64,000 bases of DNA from a virus: positions 1 through 64,000 of IMG/VR virus record IMGVR_UViG_3300044835_000040. One strand, 5' to 3'. Positions 1,820 through 58,874 of this stretch are shown piece after piece. The position numbers and the translations under genes are program-made. A model generated the notes under the pieces. It had not been told where the DNA came from. It was given only the letters and a program-made list of their open reading frames with translations, and did no database searches. Position 1 is the stretch's first letter; every line of letters begins with the position of its first letter.

Positions 1820-1881
1820 TTGACGTGTAGAGCGACCGATGGTAGCTTGACGCGTGCAACCGATGACGGAGGTGTGAGATG
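1820..1881 (+). promoter_or_regulatory. Class-i header: TTGACG-N17-TAGCTT with palindrome AGCGACCGATGGTAGCT (1831-1847), GCAACCGAT and GGAGGTGTGAGATG
   Basis: Read directly; same architecture recurs in the window. Confidence 0.75.
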
Positions 1882-6820: not shown

Positions 6821-6872
6821 CCTGACCGCCCGGTAGAGTCGCTGGCTGGTAAAAGCGACCTGGAGGTGCGAG

Positions 6873-7991
6873 ATGGGAGAGCAGGAGCAGCTGGCAGTCC
6901 GCAACGCGGACGTGGTGTTCCAGATGAACCACGGCGGCGAAGCGCTGATGGGGGAGCTGAAGGCCCTGATCGGGCTGAACCGACTGCGCTTCGGCGTCGA
7001 CGAGACGTGGCGGACGGACGCGCGCGGACTTCCGGCGGGCATCGCGCTGCTGTTCACGCAGCGCGTCGCCGAGAACTACTGCTACATCGCTGAAGTCGAC
7101 GGCGCGGTGGCACGGGTGTATCTGACGAGCTACGGCACGGCAAATGTCGAAGCCTACGGCCGGGACGTGGGGGCGGCCGAGGCGGCGCTGGAGGCCGCGA
7201 AGGGCTGGCTGCCGAAGGCCGAGCCGGACGAGGAGCAGGTCCGGGTCACGTTCTGGACCTATGGCGCGCACGGCCCGGCGAGCATCGAGCGGCCTGTCGA
7301 CGCGGACACGTGGGAGAACGTGATGGAGAACTACAGCGCGTCGGTGAGGGAGCTGCTGGGCCGGATGATGAGCAGCGCCTTCCGGCCGGGCAACGGTGGG
7401 CAGCTGGTGCTGTGGTCGGGGCCTGCGGGCACGGGGAAGACGAACGCGCTCCGTGCGCTCGCGCAGCAGTGGCGTGACTGGTGCTCAATCCACTACATCG
7501 TGGACCCGGAGCACTTCTTTGGCACGCACGCGGACTACCTGATGGAGGTCCTGATCAACGGGGAGGGCGAGAAGGTCGACGAGGACGGCACGCCGCGGCC
7601 GGAGAAGTGGCGGCTGCTCGTGCTGGAGGACTCTGGTGAGCTGCTGTCCAAGGACGCGAGCGAGCGTGTCGGGAAGGCCCTCGCGCGGCTGCTGAACACG
7701 GTCGACGGGCTGATCGGTCAGGGCCTGCGCGTGATGGTGCTGGTGACGACAAACGAGCCGGTCGGCGAGCTGCACGAAGCGATCTCCCGGAAGGGGCGCG
7801 CCGCGATGCAGATCGACTTCACGAAGCTGAACGTGGCCGAGGCTCGCCGCTGGCGTGACGCGCACGACCTGGAGGACACCTCGCAGATGCCCGCGACGCT
7901 CGCGGACCTGTACGCGGAGCTGAACGGCTTCGACGACTCGCAGCTGTCGCAGAACGGCCACCGGTCGGTCGGGTTCGCCACGACCCCCTAG
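6873..7991 (+). CDS. AAA+ ATPase (DUF5925-like N-terminal domain)
   Basis: Walker A GPAGTGKT, Walker B LLVLED, sensor VTTN, SRKGR; GGAGGTGCGAGATG start motif. Confidence 0.85.
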   Translation: MGEQEQLAVRNADVVFQMNHGGEALMGELKALIGLNRLRFGVDETWRTDARGLPAGIALLFTQRVAENYCYIAEVDGAVARVYLTSYGTANVEAYGRDVGAAEAALEAAKGWLPKAEPDEEQVRVTFWTYGAHGPASIERPVDADTWENVMENYSASVRELLGRMMSSAFRPGNGGQLVLWSGPAGTGKTNALRALAQQWRDWCSIHYIVDPEHFFGTHADYLMEVLINGEGEKVDEDGTPRPEKWRLLVLEDSGELLSKDASERVGKALARLLNTVDGLIGQGLRVMVLVTTNEPVGELHEAISRKGRAAMQIDFTKLNVAEARRWRDAHDLEDTSQMPATLADLYAELNGFDDSQLSQNGHRSVGFATTP

Positions 7992-10109: not shown

Positions 10110-10744
10110 GCGCGCGCAAACCTCTGTGCGACTTCTGCGACTCCCCGGCTGTGCGCTGGGCGCACCCGGTCGACGAGAGCAACCCGCATGGCAGCTACGC
10201 GGCGTGTGATGCGTGCTCGTCACGGATCGAGCAGGACGCGAAAGCGCAGCTGCTCAGGCGCGTGGCCCGCAAGACGGTCCGGCAGGGGCAGGCGCCGTCG
10301 ATCGCGCAGGCTGAAGCGCTGTACGCGCCGGGGCTGGAAACCTTCTGGCGGTCACGCCGTGGTGATCGCGTGCCGGTGAAGCCGGACGATCCGATCGACC
10401 CGGCGCGCGAGGACACGTTCGGCAGGATGCTCCGCGAGAGCCATCGTGGGATGGAGCTGGAGATCCACAAGGACGACGGCGATCTGCAGACCACGATCAG
10501 CGCGGAGTCCGCGGGCACGATCGGCGAGTACGCGACCGCGTGGGCGATGTCGCGCGTGAAGCGCAAGTACGATCAGACGGGCGAGATGCCGCAGCGGGTG
10601 AAGGTGCGGATCGAAGTGGAGCTGGACGGGCGGCCCGGCTCGTCGCAGCTGGGCGCGACTGGGCATGGTCCTCCGGGGCCTGCGCGGTTCGTGATCGATG
10701 GGCAGACTCGGGTGAACACGAATCAGGAGGTGCGAGATGGATGA
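10106..10744 (+). CDS. Hypothetical Zn-binding protein
   Basis: CDFC...CDAC motifs; GTGA coupling. Confidence 0.55.
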   Translation: MSARKPLCDFCDSPAVRWAHPVDESNPHGSYAACDACSSRIEQDAKAQLLRRVARKTVRQGQAPSIAQAEALYAPGLETFWRSRRGDRVPVKPDDPIDPAREDTFGRMLRESHRGMELEIHKDDGDLQTTISAESAGTIGEYATAWAMSRVKRKYDQTGEMPQRVKVRIEVELDGRPGSSQLGATGHGPPGPARFVIDGQTRVNTNQEVRDG

Positions 10745-16972: not shown

Positions 16973-17047
16973 GCGGGCATAGCATAAACAGGCCAATGCC
17001 TCCGACTTTTAATCGGATCGATGGGAGTTCGAGTCTCCTCGCCCGCA
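16973..17047 (+). tRNA. tRNA-Lys (anticodon UUU), no encoded CCA
   Basis: Acceptor GCGGGCA/CGCCCGC (one mismatch), D arm GCAT/ATGC, anticodon arm TCCGA-CTTTTAA-TCGGA, T arm GGGAG-TTCGAGT-CTCCT. Confidence 0.88.
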
Positions 17048-17341: not shown

Positions 17342-18577
17342 ATGACTCCCTCGGCTATCAAGGTCGCGGGAGGTCAGAAGGTGTGGACTCCCTCGGCTGT
17401 AGAGCAGGCGCTTCGCGACTACACGGAGCTGTATGGCCCTGAGTGGACTGCGGCCGCGTTCTCGACTTCTTCGGCGAAGTGGGCCGACCGTCAGGATCTC
17501 GTCGACCGCTACTACAAGGGCAACTCGCTCCGCGGTGGGACCGCGTGGCCGTCGCTGAACACGATCAAGAAAATCTACGGCTCGATCACCGGGGCGCGTG
17601 CGGCGCTGGGCCTGCCCGCGAACCGGCCGGGTCCGTCGAAGCGTCGTGCTGCGGGTGCGCACGCGCCGATCCGTGACGTGCGCGAGCGCGTGCACACGGT
17701 CGTGGTCGAGCGTCACGCTGACAACCGGCTGAGCGTGGAGCAGGTCGCTCGCGCGCAGGCGCAGACGACGAAGGTCAAGGTCGAGCGTGTGGTCGTGGCT
17801 GCCCCGACGGACAAGCGGCTGCTGCGTCAGGCCGAGCGCGCCGAAGGCAGGCTGGCGAAGACCGTGGAATCCCTGCGAGAGGCGCGTGGGAAGCTCCGTG
17901 ACGCCAAGAGCCGTGCTGAGGCTGCCACCCGTACCGTCAAGCAGCTCCAGGGCCGCCTGAGCGTCGCTGAGAGCGCGGCCGCTGCGCTGCGCTCGGCGCT
18001 CGACGACGCCGAAGCTGCCCGTTCGCGTGACGGGGACGCGCTCGCGATGAAGCTGATGGCTGAGATCAACGGCCGGGCGGTGGATGCGTCCGCTGCGCAG
18101 GAGCGCGAGGGCGAGCTTCTGGCTGCGCTGGTCGACGCCGACGCTCGGGTCTCGGAGCTGGAGGCCGTCGTCGAGCTGGTCGACCGTGACGAGCTGAAGC
18201 GTGCCGCTACCGAAGTCGAGCAGGCTCGTGGCAAGGTCGCGGAGGCGACTGCCGCGAAGACCGACGCTGAGCGCGTCGCGGCGACGGCTGCCCGTGAGCG
18301 CCGTGCTGCGGTCGCGCGCGCGGAGGCCGCGGAGCGCAAGGCCGCGTCGGAGACGGCGCAGCGCGCGAAGCTGCAGGAGGTGCTGGTCGGGCACGCTCGC
18401 CCGCTGACCCCTGCGCAGGTCGAGGCGCTGCGGGAGAAGGGTCCGCAGGGTCCCGCGATCTTCGGTGACGCCGTGAAGGCGGTCGTGAAGGCTCAGAGCA
18501 AAGGCGAGCGTGCGCTGCTGCGCGACGCGCTGCGGCGTGCTGCCGCGGCCGCGATCGGCTGGGCGGATCGGCTTTGA
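17342..18577 (+). CDS. Protein with homing-endonuclease-associated (HNH-repeat-like) domain plus long coiled coil
   Basis: WT..AVEQALRDY...WPSLNTIKKIYGS..GARAALGL followed by an Ala/Arg/Glu-rich coil. Confidence 0.6.
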   Translation: MTPSAIKVAGGQKVWTPSAVEQALRDYTELYGPEWTAAAFSTSSAKWADRQDLVDRYYKGNSLRGGTAWPSLNTIKKIYGSITGARAALGLPANRPGPSKRRAAGAHAPIRDVRERVHTVVVERHADNRLSVEQVARAQAQTTKVKVERVVVAAPTDKRLLRQAERAEGRLAKTVESLREARGKLRDAKSRAEAATRTVKQLQGRLSVAESAAAALRSALDDAEAARSRDGDALAMKLMAEINGRAVDASAAQEREGELLAALVDADARVSELEAVVELVDRDELKRAATEVEQARGKVAEATAAKTDAERVAATAARERRAAVARAEAAERKAASETAQRAKLQEVLVGHARPLTPAQVEALREKGPQGPAIFGDAVKAVVKAQSKGERALLRDALRRAAAAAIGWADRL

Positions 18578-19214: not shown

Positions 19215-19272
19215 CAGCTGCGACCGATGGTCGCTATGATGGCTGTGCAACCGAGATGGAGGTGTCGAGATG
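19211..19272 (+). promoter_or_regulatory. Class-i header: TTGACA-N18-TATGAT with palindrome TGCGACCGATGGTCGCT (19219-19235)
   Basis: Read directly. Confidence 0.8.
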
Positions 19273-20124: not shown

Positions 20125-20659
20125 TCTTCCGCTGTGGGTAGGCGCCAGCGTGGACCGGGTACGAGACGAGCGATCAAGAATCGCGATCTCGGGATCCCGC
20201 CGGAGCTGGTCAAGGCGGGCTTCGACAAGCACACGCTGGACCTGATGAACGAGGAGTCCAAGCGCCAGTTCAATCTCGGCGTCGGCGTCCTCGTGCAGGA
20301 GCGCGAGCGTGCTGAGCAGCTGCTGAAGTCCTTCGATCACGAACGCTGGTGGCAGAAGCTCGTGCCCGCCAGGGTCTTCGCGTTCAGGCGCGCCCGCTCG
20401 GACTATCACTTCTGGCATGGACGGCTCGCAGCCGTCTCCAAGGCTGTAGCGGACGCGCGGTTCGGCTAGCGCCGACCGCCGGGACTGGAGGAGCAGATGC
20501 ATGTGAGCGGAGCGTTGTCAGTTCGGGGAGAGCAGATCGTCAGGCAGAGCGACGGGGTGCCCTGCCTCGCGTATGCCGTCTATGACTCCGAGGACCGTCT
20601 GGTCCATGCGGCAGTCTGTGACGCTGACGAGGCGGATCGGATCGAGCGGGAGGTGCGGG

Positions 20660-21013
20660 ATGGAGCAGTACACAGCGAGCATTGAGGCGAACGCTCCGGG
20701 TGACCCGGAGATCGCTGCGGAAAGACTGGATGACGCGCTTCGCGAGGCGGCGCCCGACGGCGGCTACACCGTCAGGCTGGACGATGAGCGCGGGATGGTC
20801 GCGATCGAGCTGGGCGTGGAGGGCGACAACGCGATCGAGGCTCACGACGTAGCGATCCGCTCGTGGAGTGGCGCGTGGGACGTGGCGTTCCCCGAGGGGG
20901 AGCTGCCGACGAAGTGGGCGATGCGGATCGTGCAGGGCACGGTCGCGGCGGCGGCGCCGGTTCCGGCGGGCGTCGACCCGCTCGATGATCTCGGCGACGA
21001 CGCGCCGCGATGA
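20660..21013 (+). CDS. Hypothetical protein
   Basis: GGAGGTGCGGGATG start motif. Confidence 0.55.
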   Translation: MEQYTASIEANAPGDPEIAAERLDDALREAAPDGGYTVRLDDERGMVAIELGVEGDNAIEAHDVAIRSWSGAWDVAFPEGELPTKWAMRIVQGTVAAAAPVPAGVDPLDDLGDDAPR

Positions 21014-28234: not shown

Positions 28235-28294
28235 ACACAGCGACCATCGGTCGCTATACTCCGTCTCGCAACCGATTGATGGAGGTGCGAGATG
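28232..28294 (+). promoter_or_regulatory. Class-i header: TAGACA-N17-TATACT with palindrome AGCGACCATCGGTCGCT (28239-28255) and GGAGGTGCGAGATG
   Basis: Read directly. Confidence 0.82.
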
Positions 28295-28387
28295 GGAATT
28301 CTGAAGACGCTGGTGCCGCCGCCGAAGGGCGACCCGATCGTGGTCCCGGTCGCGGCCGTGAAGATCGTGAAGACGCGCCGTGCCTAG
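28292..28387 (+). CDS. 31-aa leader ORF MGILKTLVPPPKGDPIVVPVAAVKIVKTRRA
   Basis: Uses the conserved start motif; its end overlaps the GTG of the 1011-aa gene. Confidence 0.55.
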   Translation: MGILKTLVPPPKGDPIVVPVAAVKIVKTRRA

Positions 28388-31415: not shown

Positions 31416-31446
31416 GCTGCGCCGCAACCGATCGAGGAGGTGCGAG

Positions 31447-32172
31447 ATGGAGGGCAGGGGAATCCCGCTCAGGCGCGTGGTGGAGCTGGCCGAGACGGAC
31501 GAGGCGCAGCAGGGCAGCTTCAACTGGATCCTGACGCTCGCGGTGGTGGGGCAGGCGGGAGCGGTGTCGCTCGACGTGCGTGTCGGCGGCCATCGTTGCG
31601 CTGACGAGAGGGCGCTGCTGATGGAGCCGCAGGAGCCGGAGGCCCCGCCGAAAATCTTCGCCGCGGAGTACTGGTCGGGCGGCATCATGCTGCACGGGTA
31701 CAGGCCGATCGCGGGCGGCAGCGCCGCGCCCGCTCAGTGCGGGCTGTTGCACGACGGCCGCTGCTACGGGGAGTCGATGTTCGACCCGGAGAGAGACGGC
31801 AAGCTGATCGCCCGGCTGTCGAACCCCGGCGGTCAGAAGGCGGTGTTCGAGCACCTGGAGGGCGTGTACTGGGCCGAGTTCGTGCCATCGCTGAGCCCGG
31901 AGCAGATCGCGGCCCGTGAACGCCGCCGCGGTGAGGAGCTGGCCGAGGCGCGCCTGGAGGGCGAGCCGGAGTTCGTACGCGCGGCGCCCGACGCAGAGGT
32001 GGAGCTGACGGGTCACGAGATCTCGATCCACGACGTGCGCATGAGCGCGGGCGAGCGCTTCTGGGCGATCTGCAGCTGTCAGTGGCGGGGCGTGTCGAGC
32101 GAAGCACGCGCGGATGCCGTCGGTGATGCCGAGGCTCACATCGCGACGCAGCGTCTCCGTCAGCGAGGCTGA
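31447..32172 (+). CDS. Hypothetical protein
   Basis: Partial header TAGGCT..GCAACCGAT..AGGAGGTGCGAGATG. Confidence 0.65.
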   Translation: MEGRGIPLRRVVELAETDEAQQGSFNWILTLAVVGQAGAVSLDVRVGGHRCADERALLMEPQEPEAPPKIFAAEYWSGGIMLHGYRPIAGGSAAPAQCGLLHDGRCYGESMFDPERDGKLIARLSNPGGQKAVFEHLEGVYWAEFVPSLSPEQIAARERRRGEELAEARLEGEPEFVRAAPDAEVELTGHEISIHDVRMSAGERFWAICSCQWRGVSSEARADAVGDAEAHIATQRLRQRG

Positions 32173-34630: not shown

Positions 34631-36835
34631 GTGGCATCATGGGCCGCCGTGGGCCGCATGTCTGCCATCAGGGAGTCCGCTGAACGCCTGACGGGCGTCA
34701 GCACGATCCCGCTGACGGAGCGCCACCGTCTCGAAGAGGCCGAGCAGGAGATGCGCGGCAAGACGCGCGAGTTGCAGGATCTCGCGTACAGCATCCTCGA
34801 CTACGCGCAGGGCGCTCCGCAGGAGATGAAGGCGCAGGAGCGCCGGAACCTCGCGCAGAAGGCGCGCGTGGTCTGGCAGCAGGATCCGCAGTACGGCGGC
34901 ACGATCAACCTGCTGAACGAGTTCGTGCTCGGCCGCGGGATCCCGAAGCCGCAGGCCGTCGACGAAGCGGCCCAGGACGAGATCGACGAGTTCTGGGCTG
35001 ACCCCGATAACCAGCGGATCCTGACGACGCACGCTGCGCAGGTCCGGCTGAACACCGACCTGTCGCTGCAGAGCAACATCTTCCCGCTCGTCTATGACGA
35101 AGGCGAAGACGGGCAGGTCAAGCTCGGGCTGCTCGATCACGACACAGTGGAAAACGCGGTCCGTGACCCCGACGCTCGACTGCGGGTCCTCTACTACTTC
35201 ACGAAGTCCTACAACCGCGAATGGGACGTGCAGAAGCACACGTACGTGGTCTCCAAAGACCGCGAAAAGCTGCGCTACTACGAGGAGTTCCGCAATCTCC
35301 AGGACGCTGAACGCGACGCTGAGGCCGGGATCCGCAAGGAGGACCTGCCGCAGATCCCGCCGGATCTGATCGGCCGCGGTCGTGTGGTGCATGTCGCGAT
35401 CAACCGAACGATGGAGCAGGCGTTCGGGATCCCGGAGATCGCCCGCACGATTCGCTGGCTGACTGCGTACAACGATCTGATGCGCGCGCGTGTCGACATG
35501 GCGAAGGCGGCGTCGTCGATCATCATGCGCAGGAAGCTGAAGGGCGGCGCTGCGGGGATGACGCAGCTCGCGTCGCAGGCGCTGCTGCAGGCGAACACGG
35601 TGCCGCAGGCGCCCGTCGACCCGACGAGCCTGGGGCAGGCGCCGAAGCCGGGGTCGATCTTGGAGGAGAACGACTGGGTCGAACATCAGCCGTTCACGCT
35701 GCCGTCGGGGTCTTCCTCGGCGATGCAGGATGCGCAGATGATCCGCTCGCAGTACTCGGTCGGCACCGGCTGGCCGCAGTCGTATCTCGGTGACCCGTCA
35801 GCGACGGATCTCGCGACGGCGACGACGCTGGAGCTTCGCGTGCTGAAGATGGTCGAAGCGCGTCAGCAGGTGCTGGAGGATCTGATCTCGGTGCTGATCA
35901 ACCACAAGATCAAGCGCGCGCTCGAAACGAAGAAAATCTCGAAGTTCAGGACGATGACGGCCGAGGAGAAGAAGCGCGCACGGATGAAGGCCGAAGCCGA
36001 ACGCGAGGCCGAAGGGCTGCCCGCGCCCGGCACGCCCGCGCTCGCTGCGCAGGTGCAACAGGCGGCCGCGAACGGGCTGCGTGCGCTGCACATGGTCGAC
36101 AGCACCGACGAGGAAGAGGACGAGGCGCCGCCGACTGGCATGGTCGCTCGCGACTTCACCTTCCAGGTCTCGATGCCTTCGCCGCTGCGTCGTGCGATGG
36201 GCGATCTGATCAACGGCGTGTCGATCATCGCGAAGACGTTCGACCCGAACGCGTCGAACATGGAGCTGTCGCGGACGCTGCTCGGGATCGCGCTCGGCGA
36301 GGGCCTGGAAGTCGAGGATCCCGGCGCCGCGGTCGAGCGGATCTTCCCGGAGGGGTATGTCGACCCGATGGTGCAGGCCGCGCAGCAGCAGGCCGCCGCG
36401 CAGACGCCGGAAATGCCTCCGGGCAGCTTCTCCCCGGAAGACCAGCCGGGCTTCGGCTCGCCCGCGTCGGCATTCGGGCGGCCGGGCACGCCGCAGGGCG
36501 AGGGCAACCCGTACAACGCGAAGCAGAAAGCACGGGACCCTTCGGAATCGATGCAGCAGGCCGCGGTCGAGGAGATCGTGCACAAGGCCGCCGACGCGCT
36601 CGCGGACAGGCGGCTGCTCGTGCTGCACGCGCGTGGCGGGGAGCGTCTGACGCCGGAGGTGATGGAGGCGGTCGTGAAGCGCGCGGTCGCTCGCCAGTCG
36701 CCGACGCCCGGCGGGCGCTTCACGGGCACGCAGATCGGCGGGTCGCGTGCGGTTATGGCCGAGGTGATGGCGGACGGGATTCTCGGCGAGGCGTTCGCGA
36801 AGGCGCTCGGGTCGCTGGAGATGACCGAGCACTGA
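34631..36835 (+). CDS. Portal protein (start may be 34649 or 34658)
   Basis: Size; VVHVAINR..FGIPE; VGTGWPQSYLGD..LATA portal-like motifs; position upstream of the MuF/protease/capsid block. Confidence 0.8.
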   Translation: MASWAAVGRMSAIRESAERLTGVSTIPLTERHRLEEAEQEMRGKTRELQDLAYSILDYAQGAPQEMKAQERRNLAQKARVVWQQDPQYGGTINLLNEFVLGRGIPKPQAVDEAAQDEIDEFWADPDNQRILTTHAAQVRLNTDLSLQSNIFPLVYDEGEDGQVKLGLLDHDTVENAVRDPDARLRVLYYFTKSYNREWDVQKHTYVVSKDREKLRYYEEFRNLQDAERDAEAGIRKEDLPQIPPDLIGRGRVVHVAINRTMEQAFGIPEIARTIRWLTAYNDLMRARVDMAKAASSIIMRRKLKGGAAGMTQLASQALLQANTVPQAPVDPTSLGQAPKPGSILEENDWVEHQPFTLPSGSSSAMQDAQMIRSQYSVGTGWPQSYLGDPSATDLATATTLELRVLKMVEARQQVLEDLISVLINHKIKRALETKKISKFRTMTAEEKKRARMKAEAEREAEGLPAPGTPALAAQVQQAAANGLRALHMVDSTDEEEDEAPPTGMVARDFTFQVSMPSPLRRAMGDLINGVSIIAKTFDPNASNMELSRTLLGIALGEGLEVEDPGAAVERIFPEGYVDPMVQAAQQQAAAQTPEMPPGSFSPEDQPGFGSPASAFGRPGTPQGEGNPYNAKQKARDPSESMQQAAVEEIVHKAADALADRRLLVLHARGGERLTPEVMEAVVKRAVARQSPTPGGRFTGTQIGGSRAVMAEVMADGILGEAFAKALGSLEMTEH

Positions 36836-36888
36836 GCGTCCGTGGCCGCCGGTAGGCTCGCGGCCACAAGTCAACCTGGAGGTGCGAG

Positions 36889-37368
36889 ATGACGGTGCTG
36901 GTTCAGCCGGTGATGGCCGAGGAGGAGGCGCAGGCAGCGGTGACTGTCCTGCGGGCGGTCGAGCAGAGGCGGATCCTCGTGGAGCACGACGAGGAACGGA
37001 TACGTCACGCGATCGAGGCGATCGAGCACGCGCCGAGGCACGACCCGGAGAAGCCGCGTCCGGCGGCCGCGCGGCACGGTGACCCGTCCACGTCGAAGGA
37101 GGCAGCGAAGGCCGTCACGCCGCGCGCGGGCAGCCAGAGGGCGCTGCTGCTGGAGCAGTTCGTGCGCGTCGGCGATCGTGGCCTGACGGCGTACGAGGCG
37201 GGCGGGCTCGCGCTCGGCTACAAGGGCTGCTACTGGAAGCGCGTCGGCGAGCTGGAGGACGAAGGCTGGATCGTGCACGACGGTCGCGAGCGCGTCTCCC
37301 CCGAGTCGAACGCAAACCGCAGGGTGTTCGTCGCGACCCCGGCTGCGCACGCGTGGCGGGCCGCCTGA
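36889..37368 (+). CDS. Winged-HTH DNA-binding protein
   Basis: ARHGDPSTSKEAA...GLTAYE...KRVGELEDEGWI phage HTH pattern; GGAGGTGCGAGATG start motif. Confidence 0.7.
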   Translation: MTVLVQPVMAEEEAQAAVTVLRAVEQRRILVEHDEERIRHAIEAIEHAPRHDPEKPRPAAARHGDPSTSKEAAKAVTPRAGSQRALLLEQFVRVGDRGLTAYEAGGLALGYKGCYWKRVGELEDEGWIVHDGRERVSPESNANRRVFVATPAAHAWRAA

Positions 37369-37396
37369 CGATAGGACGCCTGCCGTAGATTGATCT

Positions 37397-37485
37397 TGCT
37401 CGGTCCCGCCCCGAGCACCCCCCGGACCCGGCGCCCGCGCATAGGAATCTCGCACCTCCTGTCGCGCGGCGCCGGGTCCCCTTTC
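37397..37485 (+). ncRNA. Candidate small RNA: two hairpins, the second loop antisense to the shared start motif
   Basis: Own promoter TAGGA-N9-TAGATT (37372-37391); hairpin 37397-37417; long hairpin 37424-37479 with loop ATCTCGCACC; ends in CTTTCT. Confidence 0.55.
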
Positions 37486-37523
37486 TGACCTGACGATAGG
37501 AGCTGGCGCTTAGGCTCTATCTC

Positions 37524-38093
37524 GTGAGCGCCAGAGACGAGCAGACAGGTCCCGCCGAGCCGCTTCTGACGCTGACGCAGGGTCAGCTGGTGAAGCTGGT
37601 GAACGATGCGGCGCTCGCGGCCGCTGAGAGGATAACGTCGCGCTATCGCCTGAAGCTCGCGTTCTGGGCGTTCCTCGCGGGCGCACTGGCGTCTTCGGCG
37701 ATTGCGATTCCGGTCACGCTGATCGTGTCGCACGATGCTGCGGCGAGCGCGGCTCGGCAGGCGAACTTGAACGCGTCGGCGAACTGCCGCAACATCTCCA
37801 GTCTCGCGACGATCGAGGAAACGACCTACCGGGAATCGGCACTCCAGACACGGGCGTTTGCGCAGAAATCGAGCGACCGGTTCGGGCTAACCAAAGAGCA
37901 GTTCGCGCAGCTGATCGCGGCGAATGAACGGCGTGAACAGATCAGGGTCGCGAAGCTGCAGGCCATCGCAGCATCCGAATGCGGGGCCAAGGTACAGACT
38001 CCCGAAACGCGCATTTCTACAACTCCGAGCAAGAAGCCGGGCACCACGACGAAACCGTCCAGTTCGACGCGTACGTCCAAGCCCGGTCACTAG
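37524..38093 (+). CDS. Membrane protein (leaderless; possible lysis accessory)
   Basis: TM segment LAFWAFLAGALASSAIAIPVTLIV; class-ii promoter at 37491-37516. Confidence 0.6.
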   Translation: MSARDEQTGPAEPLLTLTQGQLVKLVNDAALAAAERITSRYRLKLAFWAFLAGALASSAIAIPVTLIVSHDAAASAARQANLNASANCRNISSLATIEETTYRESALQTRAFAQKSSDRFGLTKEQFAQLIAANERREQIRVAKLQAIAASECGAKVQTPETRISTTPSKKPGTTTKPSSSTRTSKPGH

Positions 38094-38107
38094 GGGGCTA
38101 TGCCCCG

Positions 38108-38311
38108 ATGGGGCTGCTGCTCATAGCTTTGATCGTCGTGCTCGTCGGATCGGCGTCGGTGATCGTCTCGATCGTTCATCGCCGTCGGCACGAAGCCAAA
38201 CGCCAGGAGGACCTAGCGCAACGCGCCGCGAAGACGGCGGTGGGCCTAGCCGTAGAAAGGCTGCGAGGGGATGACGACGAGTGGCATCAGCAGGCGCACA
38301 GCCACTCCTGA
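38108..38311 (+). CDS. Small single-TM protein
   Basis: MGLLLIALIVVLVGSASVIVSIVHRRR. Confidence 0.5.
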   Translation: MGLLLIALIVVLVGSASVIVSIVHRRRHEAKRQEDLAQRAAKTAVGLAVERLRGDDDEWHQQAHSHS

Positions 38312-38622
38312 TCGCGCTGATCGCGGCTGTCGGTACGGGGCTGCCGACGCTCGCGTACACGATCTGGCGCGGGCGGAAACTGGGGCCGAAGGAGGAAGAC
38401 GCGATCGTGACGCGCACCGCTCACGATGCCGTCGAGGCGATGGATACAGTGCTGACGGCCGCACGACGCGAGCGCGAGGAAATGCAAGACAAACTGGACG
38501 CCGCCCTACGCAAGATCGCTGAGCTGGAGCGGTGTCGTGCGGAGGATGCAGAGCACATCGAGACCCTGGAGCGTCGCGTCGAGTACCTGGAGGGTGAAGT
38601 CGAGACCCTGAAGGCGTCTTAG
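38281..38622 (+). CDS. TM plus coiled-coil protein (holin/lysis-accessory-like)
   Basis: N-terminal TM then coiled coil, typical of actinophage lysis-cassette membrane proteins. Confidence 0.55.
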   Translation: MASAGAQPLLIALIAAVGTGLPTLAYTIWRGRKLGPKEEDAIVTRTAHDAVEAMDTVLTAARREREEMQDKLDAALRKIAELERCRAEDAEHIETLERRVEYLEGEVETLKAS

Positions 38623-38645
38623 GGCGCTGGCCGTAGACTGGCTGG

Positions 38646-41156
38646 ATGGCTCAGCCTGTCGCCGAAGAACAGACCGTAGCCGCCCAGCAGCTCGAAGCTG
38701 AACCTCCTCCGCAGTCGCACGTCGCGGCCGTTGCTGCTGCGGCTGCCGCCGCCGCGCTCGTGACCGGCGCGCCGTCGGCGCCGACTGCGCCGTCGAAAGC
38801 CGCGGTGCGCGCTGCGACGAAGACGCTGCTCGACGGTGTGGACGCGCTGTTCCGAGCGCGCCGTCACGGGTTCGCCACGTACATCACGACGACGGCGCAG
38901 CACCAGATGCCCGGCATCGGCGCGGACAGGGTGAGCATGTTGGCCGCGGAGGAGATGCGCAACGAGGCTGAATTCCAGCGCAAGCAGCGCCAGCGTCTCG
39001 CCGAGGAGCTGCCGCAGGCGCTGCTGATCGCCGACCCGGCCAAGCGCGCTGAAGCCGTCGCGAACATCCTCGAACGCGAGAAGCGCTACATCGGCCAGCG
39101 CGAACAGGCCGCGGCACAGCGGCTGGTCGCCGCGCTCGAAGACGACCTGCTGAAGGCTGCGTCGCCGCTCGGCGCGTACTGGAAGCTCTCGCCGCTCGTG
39201 CGTGAACACTGCCTGCGGTGCCTCGCGATGGCAGGGAAGTTCTGGCCGTGGGAGGTCCTTGAAGCGCATCGGATGCCTGTGCACCCGAACTGCCAGTGCT
39301 CGAAGCTGAGCTTGGACGAGGCGGTGAACCAGGGCCTGATGACGCAGGACCAGATCCCGGCGAAGGGCGACGCCATCGCGCTCGCGACGCGACTGATGAG
39401 CGAAGCGGGGAGGCTCGAAGAGGCGCTGACGCACGAGGAGCAGCACGAGCTGGTCTCCGGCATGGAGCTGCAGGTGGTGGAGGCGTCGCTGCGCGAGATC
39501 CTGCGGTGGGGGAAGGGCACCGAGCATGGCGGCGAGTTCAAGCCGAAGTCGGGCGGCAACCCCGGCGCGGCGGTGCAGAAGGCGGCGCACCAGCTGCGTT
39601 TCGAGACGGCGCCCGCGGCGAGCGGCCGCACGGTGAAGCTGAAGGGCGAGTCGCATTGGATCCCGAAGGGCGAGGACTGGCAGCACAAGATCGGCTCGAA
39701 CGAGTACAGCTCGCCGTGGGGGACGACGCGGATCTACCGCAACGGGCAGCTGCTCTCCCAGAGCCATCACGACCTGACGGGCACGACGCCGATCGCGACG
39801 AAGCCGCACGATGGCGGCCCGTCGTTCTTCCCGGAGCTGGGCAGTCACGGGTTCGTGGGGCCGTACGTGCCGCCGCCGGAGCCGAAGATCACGCCGCGCC
39901 CGGCGCCGAAGGGTCTGGGCAAGGTGGGCATCCCGGACTACTCGGGCCGCAAGCTGGAGATCGGCAAGAGCGCGGGCGGCTCGACGGGCGCCAAATGGGC
40001 GTTCGACAAGAAAGGCAACCGGTGGCTGGTCAAGACCTACAAAGGCAACCAGGACCGTGTGGCGAGCGAGCTGCTGGCGAACGCGATCTACCGGGACCTG
40101 GGCGCGAAGGTCGCTCCGGCGGGCACCTACTACGCGAAGCTGGACGGCAAGCCGATCGTCGCGCTCACGTACCCGACGCTGGAGGGCGAGATCCGCAAAA
40201 TCAACTCGCCGAGCCGGGACCTGGGCAAGCACTACATGGCGGACGCGCTCGTCGCCAACTGGGACTTCGTGGGGCTCGCCGACGACAACGTGCTGTGGGG
40301 GCCTGACGGCAAGCCCGCTCGGCTCGATCAGGGCGGCACGTTCCAGTTCCGTGCGCAGGGCGCGCCGAAGCCCTACGGCGGCGTCCCGACTGAGGCGTGG
40401 ACGATGTTGCAGCCGAAGGGCCAGGGCTTCGGCAAGGTCGACGTGAGCGAGTCGGAAATGCGCGGGCAGGCCGCCAAGATCGCGGAGACGCTGACGCCGA
40501 CGCGCATCAAGCAGCTCGTGATGGCCGCACCGTTCGCCGACACGAAGATGGCGGGTGAGGTCGAAGCGGCGCTGAGGGAACGCGTGCAGTGGATGCGCGA
40601 CTTCAGCACGGGCGACGTGTCGCTGCCGCAGCCGTTGACTGGCGGTGAGATCGGCAAGCAGCTGCACGAGCACCAGCGGAACCTGGGGGCGTCCCCGGAG
40701 CAGCACAACGCGCTCGCGCGCTACACGAGCGACGAGGCTCTGCAGCGCCGGATGCAGGAACGGCTCCGCGCTGGGGAGAAGCTGTCGCTGGTGCAGAACG
40801 AGATGCGCAAGGGCATCGACAATCTGCTCGGGCGCGCTGCGACGCCGGAAGACCTGACGGTGTACCGGACGATGGATCCAGGGCAGCTCGGGGACCTGAG
40901 CAAGCTGGAGGGCAAGATCGTCAAAGACAAGGGCTTCGGTGGCGCCACGTCCTCGCGCGCGGCGGCGTCCGCGGCGCCGGGGATGCTGCAGATCCATGTT
41001 CCCGCCGGGTCGCGAGTCCTTCACGTGCACAGCCTCGAAGGCGTCGACAAGACCGACCCGCACAGCGAGCTGATGTTGCCTCGCGGCTCGCGGATGCGGG
41101 TGAAGGAAGTCGAGCGCCGCGGCAGCAAAACGATCGTCCACACGGTGCTCGTCTGA
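38646..41156 (+). CDS. MuF/minor-head protein fused to a kinase-like domain and an ADP-ribosyltransferase domain
   Basis: HCLRC..HPNCQC (MuF); GGSTGA..WLVK..SELLA..NWD..DN..RLDQGG (PI3/4-kinase/HipA-like); RYT..LTVYR..DKGF..TS..ELMLPRG (VIP2-like ART). Confidence 0.8.
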   Translation: MAQPVAEEQTVAAQQLEAEPPPQSHVAAVAAAAAAAALVTGAPSAPTAPSKAAVRAATKTLLDGVDALFRARRHGFATYITTTAQHQMPGIGADRVSMLAAEEMRNEAEFQRKQRQRLAEELPQALLIADPAKRAEAVANILEREKRYIGQREQAAAQRLVAALEDDLLKAASPLGAYWKLSPLVREHCLRCLAMAGKFWPWEVLEAHRMPVHPNCQCSKLSLDEAVNQGLMTQDQIPAKGDAIALATRLMSEAGRLEEALTHEEQHELVSGMELQVVEASLREILRWGKGTEHGGEFKPKSGGNPGAAVQKAAHQLRFETAPAASGRTVKLKGESHWIPKGEDWQHKIGSNEYSSPWGTTRIYRNGQLLSQSHHDLTGTTPIATKPHDGGPSFFPELGSHGFVGPYVPPPEPKITPRPAPKGLGKVGIPDYSGRKLEIGKSAGGSTGAKWAFDKKGNRWLVKTYKGNQDRVASELLANAIYRDLGAKVAPAGTYYAKLDGKPIVALTYPTLEGEIRKINSPSRDLGKHYMADALVANWDFVGLADDNVLWGPDGKPARLDQGGTFQFRAQGAPKPYGGVPTEAWTMLQPKGQGFGKVDVSESEMRGQAAKIAETLTPTRIKQLVMAAPFADTKMAGEVEAALRERVQWMRDFSTGDVSLPQPLTGGEIGKQLHEHQRNLGASPEQHNALARYTSDEALQRRMQERLRAGEKLSLVQNEMRKGIDNLLGRAATPEDLTVYRTMDPGQLGDLSKLEGKIVKDKGFGGATSSRAAASAAPGMLQIHVPAGSRVLHVHSLEGVDKTDPHSELMLPRGSRMRVKEVERRGSKTIVHTVLV

Positions 41157-48354: not shown

Positions 48355-48414
48355 CGCAGCGACCATCGGTCGCTATACTCTGTCTCGCAACCGATCAACT
48401 GGAGGTGCGAGATG
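48351..48414 (+). promoter_or_regulatory. Class-i header: CTGACG-N17-TATACT with palindrome AGCGACCATCGGTCGCT (48358-48374) and GGAGGTGCGAGATG
   Basis: Nearly identical to 28232-28294. Confidence 0.82.
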
Positions 48415-49901: not shown

Positions 49902-49965
49902 GCGACCGATGGTCGCGCTCGTGTGATAGACTCTAGGGTGCAACCGATCCTGGAGGTACGACATG
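49901..49965 (+). promoter_or_regulatory. Class-i header variant (palindrome 49901-49917, TAGACT, GCAACCGAT, GGAGGTACGACATG)
   Basis: Read directly. Confidence 0.7.
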
Positions 49966-50181: not shown

Positions 50182-50257
50182 TTGACAGACGCACGATCGG
50201 TGAGCTACCATCGGTCGCACTAAGCAACCGATTCACGAGGAAAGAAGGTGCGAGATG
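50182..50257 (+). promoter_or_regulatory. Class-i header: TTGACA-N18-TACCAT with palindrome variant AGCTACCATCGGTCGCA (50203-50219)
   Basis: Read directly. Confidence 0.72.
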
Positions 50258-58217: not shown

Positions 58218-58874
58218 GTGATGCAAGCACCTACCCCCGCCGAAATCCGTAGCTGGACCCCTCAGATGAACTGGGCGGAATACGACTACGAGGCGCCGCA
58301 CACGTCGACGGCGATCGACCCGTTGGTGCTGGAGGTGGGACTGGCGTGCGATTACGTGGCGTGGGTCTCGGGCCGTCCGTTGGACGCGACGATGCCTCCG
58401 GCGCTCGAACGCGCGGCGCAGAAGGCGGTGGTGCTGCGCACGATCCAGCAGGTGATCCAGGAGTCCGGCGAACAGCAGGAAGACCTGTTTGCGGGCACGA
58501 CGCTGAAAGGCTTTAGCGTGACGGGCTACGCCGAGCAGTATGTCGAGGTCGGCGAGGCCGAGCAGGCTCACCGCAAGGGGATGATGATCAACCCGCAGCC
58601 GGAGCTGAACCGGCTGCTGTGGATGCTCGTGACGCCGCAGCAGCTCGGCTGGTGGCGGGCGTTCCTCTCGGAAGGCGGGATCCCTGCGTACGGCGTGGTG
58701 GAGATGGACTGGAGCGGCGCGAACCGCTACGGCGGCTACGCGGGCATCATGGAGGGCGGCCTGCCGGGTGACTACCCCGGCTATGGCGGCTTGGAGGGCG
58801 AGGGCTGGCCGGGGCTGGGCGCTTGGCCTGCGATGGGGAGCTACCCCGGAATGGTGCTTGGCGGTGGGATATGA
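58218..58874 (+). CDS. Putative head-tail adaptor
   Basis: Synteny; KGFSVTGYAEQY. Confidence 0.55.
   Translation: MMQAPTPAEIRSWTPQMNWAEYDYEAPHTSTAIDPLVLEVGLACDYVAWVSGRPLDATMPPALERAAQKAVVLRTIQQVIQESGEQQEDLFAGTTLKGFSVTGYAEQYVEVGEAEQAHRKGMMINPQPELNRLLWMLVTPQQLGWWRAFLSEGGIPAYGVVEMDWSGANRYGGYAGIMEGGLPGDYPGYGGLEGEGWPGLGAWPAMGSYPGMVLGGGI

Follow-up and report, generated by a model that had tools for sequence, protein, structure and literature searches.

The stretch analysed here (the window) covers the first 64 kb of IMG/VR record IMGVR_UViG_3300044835_000040, a single virus contig of 129,070 bp and 68% GC that comes from an uncultured soil phage and is called G000 below. Within its head module, in a 155-bp gap after a gene for a 159-aa protein, the + strand carries a long GC-rich hairpin whose loop region is the reverse complement, or mirror, of a 13-base tag, GGAGGTGCGAGAT, that stands at gene starts. 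Genome comparison indicates that the element is real, that its structure is held at the RNA level and that its loop is preserved as a mirror copy of the tag. The hairpin RNA probably pairs in trans with the initiation regions that bear the tag; ribosomes would then be kept from binding, and the genes turned down together. The element consists of the following parts:

37367..37391, + strand: promoter-like GACGATAGGA-N9-TAGATT, of the class RATAGRV-N9-TASNNT.
37397..37417, + strand: 5' hairpin of 7 bp with the loop UCCCGCC (RNAfold).
37424..37479, + strand: long GC-rich hairpin with 16 outer and 6 inner pairs and two 1-nt bulges (RNAfold).
37447..37459, + strand: mirror of the start tag, ATCTCGCACCTCC, with 37447-37456 in the open loop and 37457-37459 paired.
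37480..37488, + strand: tail CCTTTCTGA with a weak U-tract, where the RNA may end (read from the sequence); it fails the U-tract rule of the terminator scan.

This layout of box, 7-bp hairpin, long GC hairpin and tail had been proposed by a sequence-only reading of the window, and both the sequence and RNAfold bear it out. The stretch 37392-37490 folds on the + strand with -55.2 kcal/mol (z = -6.6), and none of 200 shuffled versions was equally stable. The apical loop is the 10-nt AUCUCGCACC (37447-37456), unpaired with p ~1.0, and together with the next three bases (UCC) it forms an exact mirror of the 13-mer tag. In the whole 129,070 bp the tag occurs perfectly ten times on the + strand and once on the - strand, the latter being the loop, so the apex is indeed the exact reverse complement of the start motif and its sole - strand copy. 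By chance, 0.001 (0-order model) to 0.002 (1st-order model) copies of the mirror 13-mer would be expected on the + strand.

One close relative was compared, a 122.7-kb IMG/VR contig (G001) whose portal protein is 77% identical. The two genomes are collinear, with ~64-77% DNA identity and a like gene order around the hairpin. In G001 a tagged gene for a 167-aa orthologue of the 159-aa protein is followed by the box ATAGAC-N9-TAGCTT, a small hairpin of 6 bp whose loop includes CCCGCC, and a 15-bp hairpin with a 13-nt loop that carries AUCUCGCACCUCC: all 13 mirror bases are the same as in G000. The stem sequences differ. Among 17 consensus pairs (RNAalifold), four are changed on both sides, two on one side and none is broken. 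Because the loop is kept 13/13 while the stem changes by compensatory substitutions, the comparison of these two genomes (n=2) supports a structured + strand RNA under selection at this gap, and a relative thus keeps both the start motif and the complementary loop. In each phage one pair of the inner helix is G-U and would turn into an A-C mismatch if read on the - strand. A coding function was considered and dropped: a 32-aa open reading frame (ORF) has no Pfam match and its frame is not kept between the two phages. The ORFs over the hairpin, of 30 codons in G000 and 44 in G001, read the 13-mer in different frames, so the conserved entity is not a peptide.

The tag itself is a tightly built initiation signal. 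Its RNA form, GGAGGUGCGAGAU, consists of an extended Shine-Dalgarno (SD) sequence, a fixed 4-nt spacer and the AU of AUG. When the window was searched for GGAGGTGCGAGATG with up to 2 mismatches, 11 matches were found against 1.46 expected, a number reached in 0 of 100 shuffles; ten lie on the + strand and one, at 37446-37459, on the - strand. The tagged starts in the window are:

1868..1881, + strand: tag with 1 change (G-U compatible), before a 224-aa gene.
6862..6875, + strand: perfect tag before a 372-aa gene.
10726..10739, + strand: perfect tag before an 87-aa gene; complementarity to the loop region runs to 15 nt (-30.6 kcal/mol, a shared top score).
20649..20662, + strand: tag with 1 change (G-U compatible), before a 117-aa gene (-30.6 kcal/mol).
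28281..28294, + strand: perfect tag after a palindrome promoter and the leader GCAACCGAT; a 31-codon ORF comes next.
31436..31449, + strand: perfect tag before a 241-aa gene.
36878-36890, + strand: tag of the ORF 36889..37368, the 159-aa gene, winged-helix-like (phrog_18663, E = 9.5e-12).
48401..48414, + strand: perfect tag after a palindrome promoter and the leader GCAACCGAT, before a 72-aa gene.
49952..49965, + strand: tag with 2 changes, before a 71-aa gene.
50244..50257, + strand: tag with 1 change, before a 389-aa gene (phrog_1362) whose orthologue is tagged in G001.

The sites listed by the sequence-only reading are therefore perfect at 6862, 10726, 28281, 31436, 36878 and 48401 and near-perfect at 1868, 20649 and 50244, as it had said; its remaining near match, at 19258, is one only if a 1-base insertion is allowed (GGAGGTGTCGAGATG), for which reason the substitution search misses it.

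Predicted pairing singles out the same sites. RNAduplex was run with 37445-37462 as the seed against every 22-mer of the genome's + strand. Tag copies take all of the 16 top places (-30.6 to -24.6 kcal/mol), below which come scattered sites inside genes; tagged starts had been predicted to be the top targets, and they are. Fifteen of the 16 have the tag directly at the start codon, and in the exception, at 112589, the ATG lies 2 nt further on. By complementarity, about 16-20 genes are headed by the tag. They are mostly non-structural, and their products, largely of unknown function, include a RecT-like protein, a P-loop ATPase, an excisionase-like helix-turn-helix (HTH) protein and a repressor-like HTH protein. 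Three tags head very short ORFs, of 31 codons (28292-28387), 6 codons (101803-101823) and 18 codons (112604-112660), and the 6-codon ORF overlaps the start of the next gene; such ORFs may be leader peptides or serve translational coupling. G001 has six forward tags (up to 1 mismatch) and one reverse copy, which is its loop. Six clear orthologous pairs and one weak pair, at 37-62% protein identity, keep the tag in both phages, among them the RecT-like protein and the ATPase.

Of the 19 tag copies listed with their upstream sequence, eight follow a palindrome, GCGACC-N3-GGTCGC, that sits inside a sigma-70-like -35/-10 pair and precedes the leader GCAACCGA. In these eight the whole 5' untranslated region (UTR) of ~22-27 nt, with the leader GCAACCGAT-N3, is conserved; the other 11 are without the cassette. 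From its placement, the palindrome looks like the operator of a dispersed regulon (window 1831-50257).

The box in front of the hairpin belongs to a small and strictly oriented class. RATAGRV-N9-TASNNT occurs seven times on the + strand of G000 (6705, 24985, 37370, 37495, 78482, 94247 and 98970) and five times on that of G001, and not once on the - strand of either. Four of the copies form syntenic pairs between the phages in which a start codon lies 6-8 nt past the second box and opens an ORF of 66-411 aa, a leaderless geometry. A fifth syntenic pair precedes the hairpin and has no conserved ORF behind it. Just downstream of the hairpin the class recurs ahead of the next gene:

37492..37516, + strand: second copy of the class, GACGATAGGA-N9-TAGGCT, ahead of 37524..38093 and syntenic with position 18354 of G001.
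37524..38093, + strand: 189-aa leaderless gene of the head module, with a GTG start at 37524.

The GTG at 37524 would be about the first base of a leaderless mRNA started from this box. Copies present in G000 only stand ahead of a collagen-like tail-fibre gene (98970) and of a 28-codon ORF (6705). The description of this class as one of virion genes fits the tail-fibre gene and, in the head module, the gene at 37524; since the other copies stand ahead of genes of unknown function, its support is thin. We take these patterns as good indirect evidence that RATAGRV-N9-TASNNT may be a phage-specific promoter class and that the hairpin would be an independent non-coding transcript. Its start is predicted ~6-8 nt past the second box (~37398), at the foot of the 5' hairpin.

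A second candidate RNA appears to address the same leader from the other side:

G000 98,246-98,363 and G001 72,130-72,290, + strand: candidate RNA with a sigma-70-like promoter (TTGCGG-17-TATAGT), hairpins, a seed and a terminator with a proper U-tract.

In G000 its seed, CGCACCTCCAGAAGAATCGGTTGC, is the mirror of GCAACCGAT...GGAGGTGCG, that is, of the 5' box plus the SD of the shared leader. The syntenic locus of G001 is built alike, and its seed GTGCCTCCAACAGTAGGTTGCC matches that phage's own leader, GGCAACC(A/T)ACT...GGAGG. Seed and leader differ in step between the phages, since each seed mirrors its own phage's form of the leader. The two candidate RNAs overlap on the SD and between them would cover the whole leader.

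Taken together, the gap would be a gene for a ~90-nt non-coding RNA on the + strand. The analysis shows the structure, loop conservation, promoter-class conservation and specificity of complementarity; transcription, 3' end, timing and direction of effect are our inference. Transcription would begin at ~37398 from the phage-specific promoter class and end at or just after the long GC hairpin. The 3' half of the loop is the 16S anti-SD sequence, so the RNA would compete with the ribosome in a tag-specific manner. Contact would start as a kiss between loop and leader over the spacer and start codon, after which the short upper helix would open and pairing extend over the SD. As a result, 30S binding would be blocked, or the mRNA marked for decay, across all tagged messages. 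The second candidate RNA, at ~98.3 kb, mirrors the 5' half of the leader, and the two could act at different times. The sequence-only reading had proposed one late antisense RNA for the whole regulon: its structured RNA, its promoter class and its pairing specific to tagged starts have stood, while the late shut-off would still have to be supposed, and 'late' is our guess for the timing of the hairpin RNA.

A GC3/GC2 composition filter, which alone cannot tell sense from antisense frames, assigns 84.5 kb of coding-like ORFs to the + strand of G000 and 7.1 kb to the - strand. Upstream of the 159-aa gene lies the portal gene:

34631..36835, + strand: portal gene (phrog_10963).

The 159-aa protein has an HTH-like C-terminus, and a homologue (P0002) matches PF12840 and PF12802. 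Further downstream, 38646..41156 encodes a MuF-like head protein whose C-terminal domain is an ADP-ribosyltransferase (PF03496, E = 2.3e-10). An Rfam scan of the window returned no curated family at or above the gathering threshold for the hairpin; the sole match passing it was a tRNA gene at 16973-17047.

Searched against a phage collection, 36000-39000 gave no DNA match by blastn and remote portal matches only at the protein level. A protein search with the portal returned 37 relatives, 14 of them at 55-77% identity, and a protein-based metagenome scan for closer relatives found none. With a tighter pattern over viral contigs G001 was the sole match, and a single DNA run of the source showed the source contig only and no variants. 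A loose-pattern metagenome scan returned at least 120 stretches, none with a protein homologue: 86 are gene starts read on the opposite strand, because the 13-mer follows a C, and the remaining 34 are without a matching hairpin. One metagenome contig (L084, ~900-1010, - strand) carries an array like clustered regularly interspaced short palindromic repeats, with a ~28-base repeat holding a GTCCCCAC...GTGGGGA palindrome. One of its spacers holds the reverse complement of the tag plus ATG, to which no start in G000 or G001 matches.

More distant phages show a similar arrangement with other sequences. A further 42 portal relatives, 36-48% identical, are without the 159-aa gene, and the tag was not found as a repeat in the 29 of them that were searched. 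Some have leader boxes of their own, CGACCGAGGAG in G005, G007 and G010 and CGACCAAGGAG in G023 and G025. In the sister clade of G007, G010 and G005, a different tag, CCGACCGAGGAG, occurs 16-19 times forward, and G007 and G010 each have one reverse copy without a start codon behind it, inside a conserved hairpin just past a gene end:

G007 ~74,900-74,990, G010 ~72,380-72,470 (oriented) and G005 ~64,310-64,400: sister-clade mirror hairpin.

One stem pair changes from A-U to G-C and is an A-C mismatch in G005. This mirror is weaker evidence, since part of it is predicted to pair within the hairpin.

A closer parallel comes from mycobacteriophages of Cluster K, whose start-associated sequences (SAS) lie at gene starts. 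K1 phages have one reverse SAS that is not at a gene start, as described by Pope et al. 2011 (PMC3203893). We located that of Adephagia, its one copy, at 58,682-58,694, within the 430 bp that separate genes 92 and 93; there a long hairpin, with a 5' hairpin ahead of it, presents it as its 10-nt loop CCUCCUAUCC (record 58,619-58,719, L217:38620-38720). The analogy drawn by the sequence-only reading between the tag and SAS has thereby gained a counterpart of the mirror loop itself. Upstream of the hairpin lies a conserved TAGACT box, and 144 phage records keep the stretch. In 8 of 13 sampled Cluster K phages the loop is unchanged while the stems vary, and many G-U pairs fix the + strand. Late transcription has been reported to start in this 92-93 gap (PMC11373665). 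In our phage, the upstream box GATAGGAG of the promoter class is identical to the core of the SAS of Cluster K, which may be coincidence.

Several observations weigh against a discrete RNA that acts on all tagged genes. Neither phage has a sigma-70 consensus promoter at the hairpin, the class box being without a sigma-70 match, and a terminator scan found no intrinsic terminator at its 3' end in either (0 sites). The tail is CCUUUCU (DNA CCTTTCT) in G000 and ACGCCTTCGG (RNA ACGCCUUCGG) in G001; it has few U residues, above all in G001, which makes a discrete 3' end doubtful. In G000 the stem takes up three of the 13 mirror bases (37457-37459). A covariance model of the element (R1) finds only G000 and G001; among 29 other related records the strongest hits (G005 and G025, E = 0.01 and 0.03) do not resemble the element, and none is a convincing homologue. 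The uniformity of the tag could in part stem from cassette spread, since 8 of the 19 copies lie in the repeated promoter-operator-leader cassette. Among the Cluster K phages, the loop of DarthP and Ekdilam is CCUCCUUCCCC, and ShedlockHolmes, Pixie and Shandong1 have other apices; all five keep 13-16 forward SAS, and DarthP, Ekdilam, Shandong1 and ShedlockHolmes, which lie outside Anayavirus, have 0 exact reverse SAS. The Microbacterium phage AnnaSerena, with a third family of SAS, likewise has 10 forward and 0 reverse. Since these phages bear SAS without a mirror, a mirror RNA is not the sole reason for tag conservation, and the earlier suggestion that the RNA explains the conserved SD-to-ATG spacer is weakened.

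The main rivals to pairing in trans are a fold-back in cis and a protein ligand. We wondered whether the hairpin might simply be the 3' end of the mRNA of the portal and 159-aa genes, its loop folding back on that transcript's own tagged start ~570 nt upstream to set translation or stability, as in pairing between 5' and 3' UTRs. The gene just upstream bears a perfect tag in both phages, which counts for such a fold-back and against action in trans; no terminator lies between its stop codon and the hairpin, and an intramolecular partner would presumably be favoured kinetically. However, between that stop codon and the hairpin lies a conserved box of the putative promoter class, which at other sites would start transcripts, and the 159-aa gene is not the best match (-26.9 kcal/mol versus -30.6 at 10726 and 20649), fifteen other sites being comparable. 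We therefore hold the fold-back to be rather unlikely. For SAS, Pope et al. 2011 (PMC3203893) allow for a protein or an RNA as the ligand, and the tag could likewise be a protein-binding site in RNA or DNA, the reversed copy being an extra operator or a decoy and the binder perhaps the winged-helix neighbour, whose HTH-like C-terminus and synteny with the hairpin in both phages fit the role. Yet a site in duplex DNA needs no 22-bp stem held by compensatory changes, the + strand RNA shows the complement of the tag rather than the tag, and a second, differently built RNA mirrors the leader too, with a seed that varies with the leader between the phages. We consider a protein ligand unlikely.

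Two further explanations take the mirror as accidental or read it from the other strand. A plain terminator or stabilising hairpin, with a loop that resembles the tag by descent, for example as the relic of an inverted gene start, would account for a GC-rich stem at an operon end with a short U-containing tail, and the ATT or ATC that follows the tag on the - strand is possibly a decayed ATG. The lack of a coding-like - strand ORF at the locus by the composition filter, which alone cannot separate sense from antisense, speaks against this. An intrinsic terminator would have a short loop and a U run after its GC stem; here the loop has 10 nt (13 in G001) and the U-tract is poor. Moreover, the loop is identical at 13/13 positions between diverged flanks, its chance expectation as a mirror is low, and the layout recurs with other tags in other lineages (Adephagia and the sister clade), so that this explanation seems quite improbable to us. 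Transcription of the - strand, by which the hairpin would show the tag itself as a decoy for tag binders, including the second anti-leader RNA, appears very improbable: that strand folds well too (-56.4 kcal/mol, z = -4.7), but the inner-helix G-U pairs of both phages become A-C mismatches on it, the promoter-class motif is absent from it in both phages, and the composition filter places almost all coding-like signal on the + strand. Pairing of the + strand hairpin RNA in trans with the tagged starts thus stays the reading we prefer.

Base-pairing small RNAs and phage antisense RNAs are well known; a phage RNA that reaches an entire regulon by way of a private tag in each ribosome-binding site (RBS) was absent from the literature searched. 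No start tag linked to an antisense RNA was found there, in what was covered of PMC3203893, PMC11373665, PMC7302621, PMC12197685 and PMC12699233, among others; the supplements of the SAS papers lay outside this search and may list reverse sites. Tentatively, and with more doubt than confidence, we suggest that tags and mirror-loop RNAs may form a recurrent phage translation switch, in which a late RNA mimics the 3' end of 16S rRNA, outbinds it on the tag and so silences all tagged genes together, two RNAs with two promoter classes make a two-step timer, and the reverse SAS is the regulator that explains the SAS of Cluster K. If so, the function of these SAS, open since 2011, would be explained, and the puzzle becomes testable in a cultivable system, with existing RNA sequencing data and routine phage recombineering in M. 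smegmatis. Pairs of tag and mirror could also serve as orthogonal translation switches.

The system most like ours is that of the Cluster K SAS, whose ligand, RNA or protein, was left to be determined by Pope et al. 2011 (PMC3203893). In both, a 13-base asymmetric motif lies over the RBS near the ATG in one orientation (for SAS at 13-19 mostly non-structural genes), a subset of copies stands behind a promoter with an inverted repeat, and, as in K1 phages, a single reverse copy lies off gene starts (one each in G000, G001 and Adephagia). The comparison is one of analogy only, 36000-39000 having no homology to Cluster K genomes by blastn: the SAS consensus GGGATAGGAGCCC is unrelated to GGAGGTGCGAGAT, phage family and genome size differ, the tag here extends into the start codon, and its mirror follows a portal-side gene, whereas in Cluster K the mirror lies at the right genome end.

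In the c4 antisense RNA of P1 and P7 (Citron & Schuster 1990, as summarised in PMC12197685), loops pair around an RBS and block translation, with one operon (ant) as the target and immunity as the outcome. Like c4, the element is a small structured phage RNA with a loop complementary to a ribosome-binding region, whereas here one loop faces ~16-20 dispersed genes and the host lineage differs. The c4 RNA is processed from its target transcript; the hairpin RNA instead has its own putative promoter. In Gram-positive bacteria, C-rich loops of RsaE/RoxS, of RNAIII hairpins and of the actinobacterial 6C RNA pair with the G-rich SDs of many mRNAs, with no obvious need for Hfq. The seeds of such C-rich loops are short (CCCC/UCCC) and their targets are host regulons, in contrast to the 13-nt seed described here, which fits a tag private to the phage, spacer and start codon included. 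In T4, the repressor RegA and the GGAG-cutting endoribonuclease RegB are proteins that shut off early mRNAs at their RBSs. The proposed logic is the same, in that a shared feature of early initiation regions would allow their joint silencing, with an RNA as the proposed effector; if true, the hairpin RNA would be a purely RNA-based counterpart to RegA/RegB.

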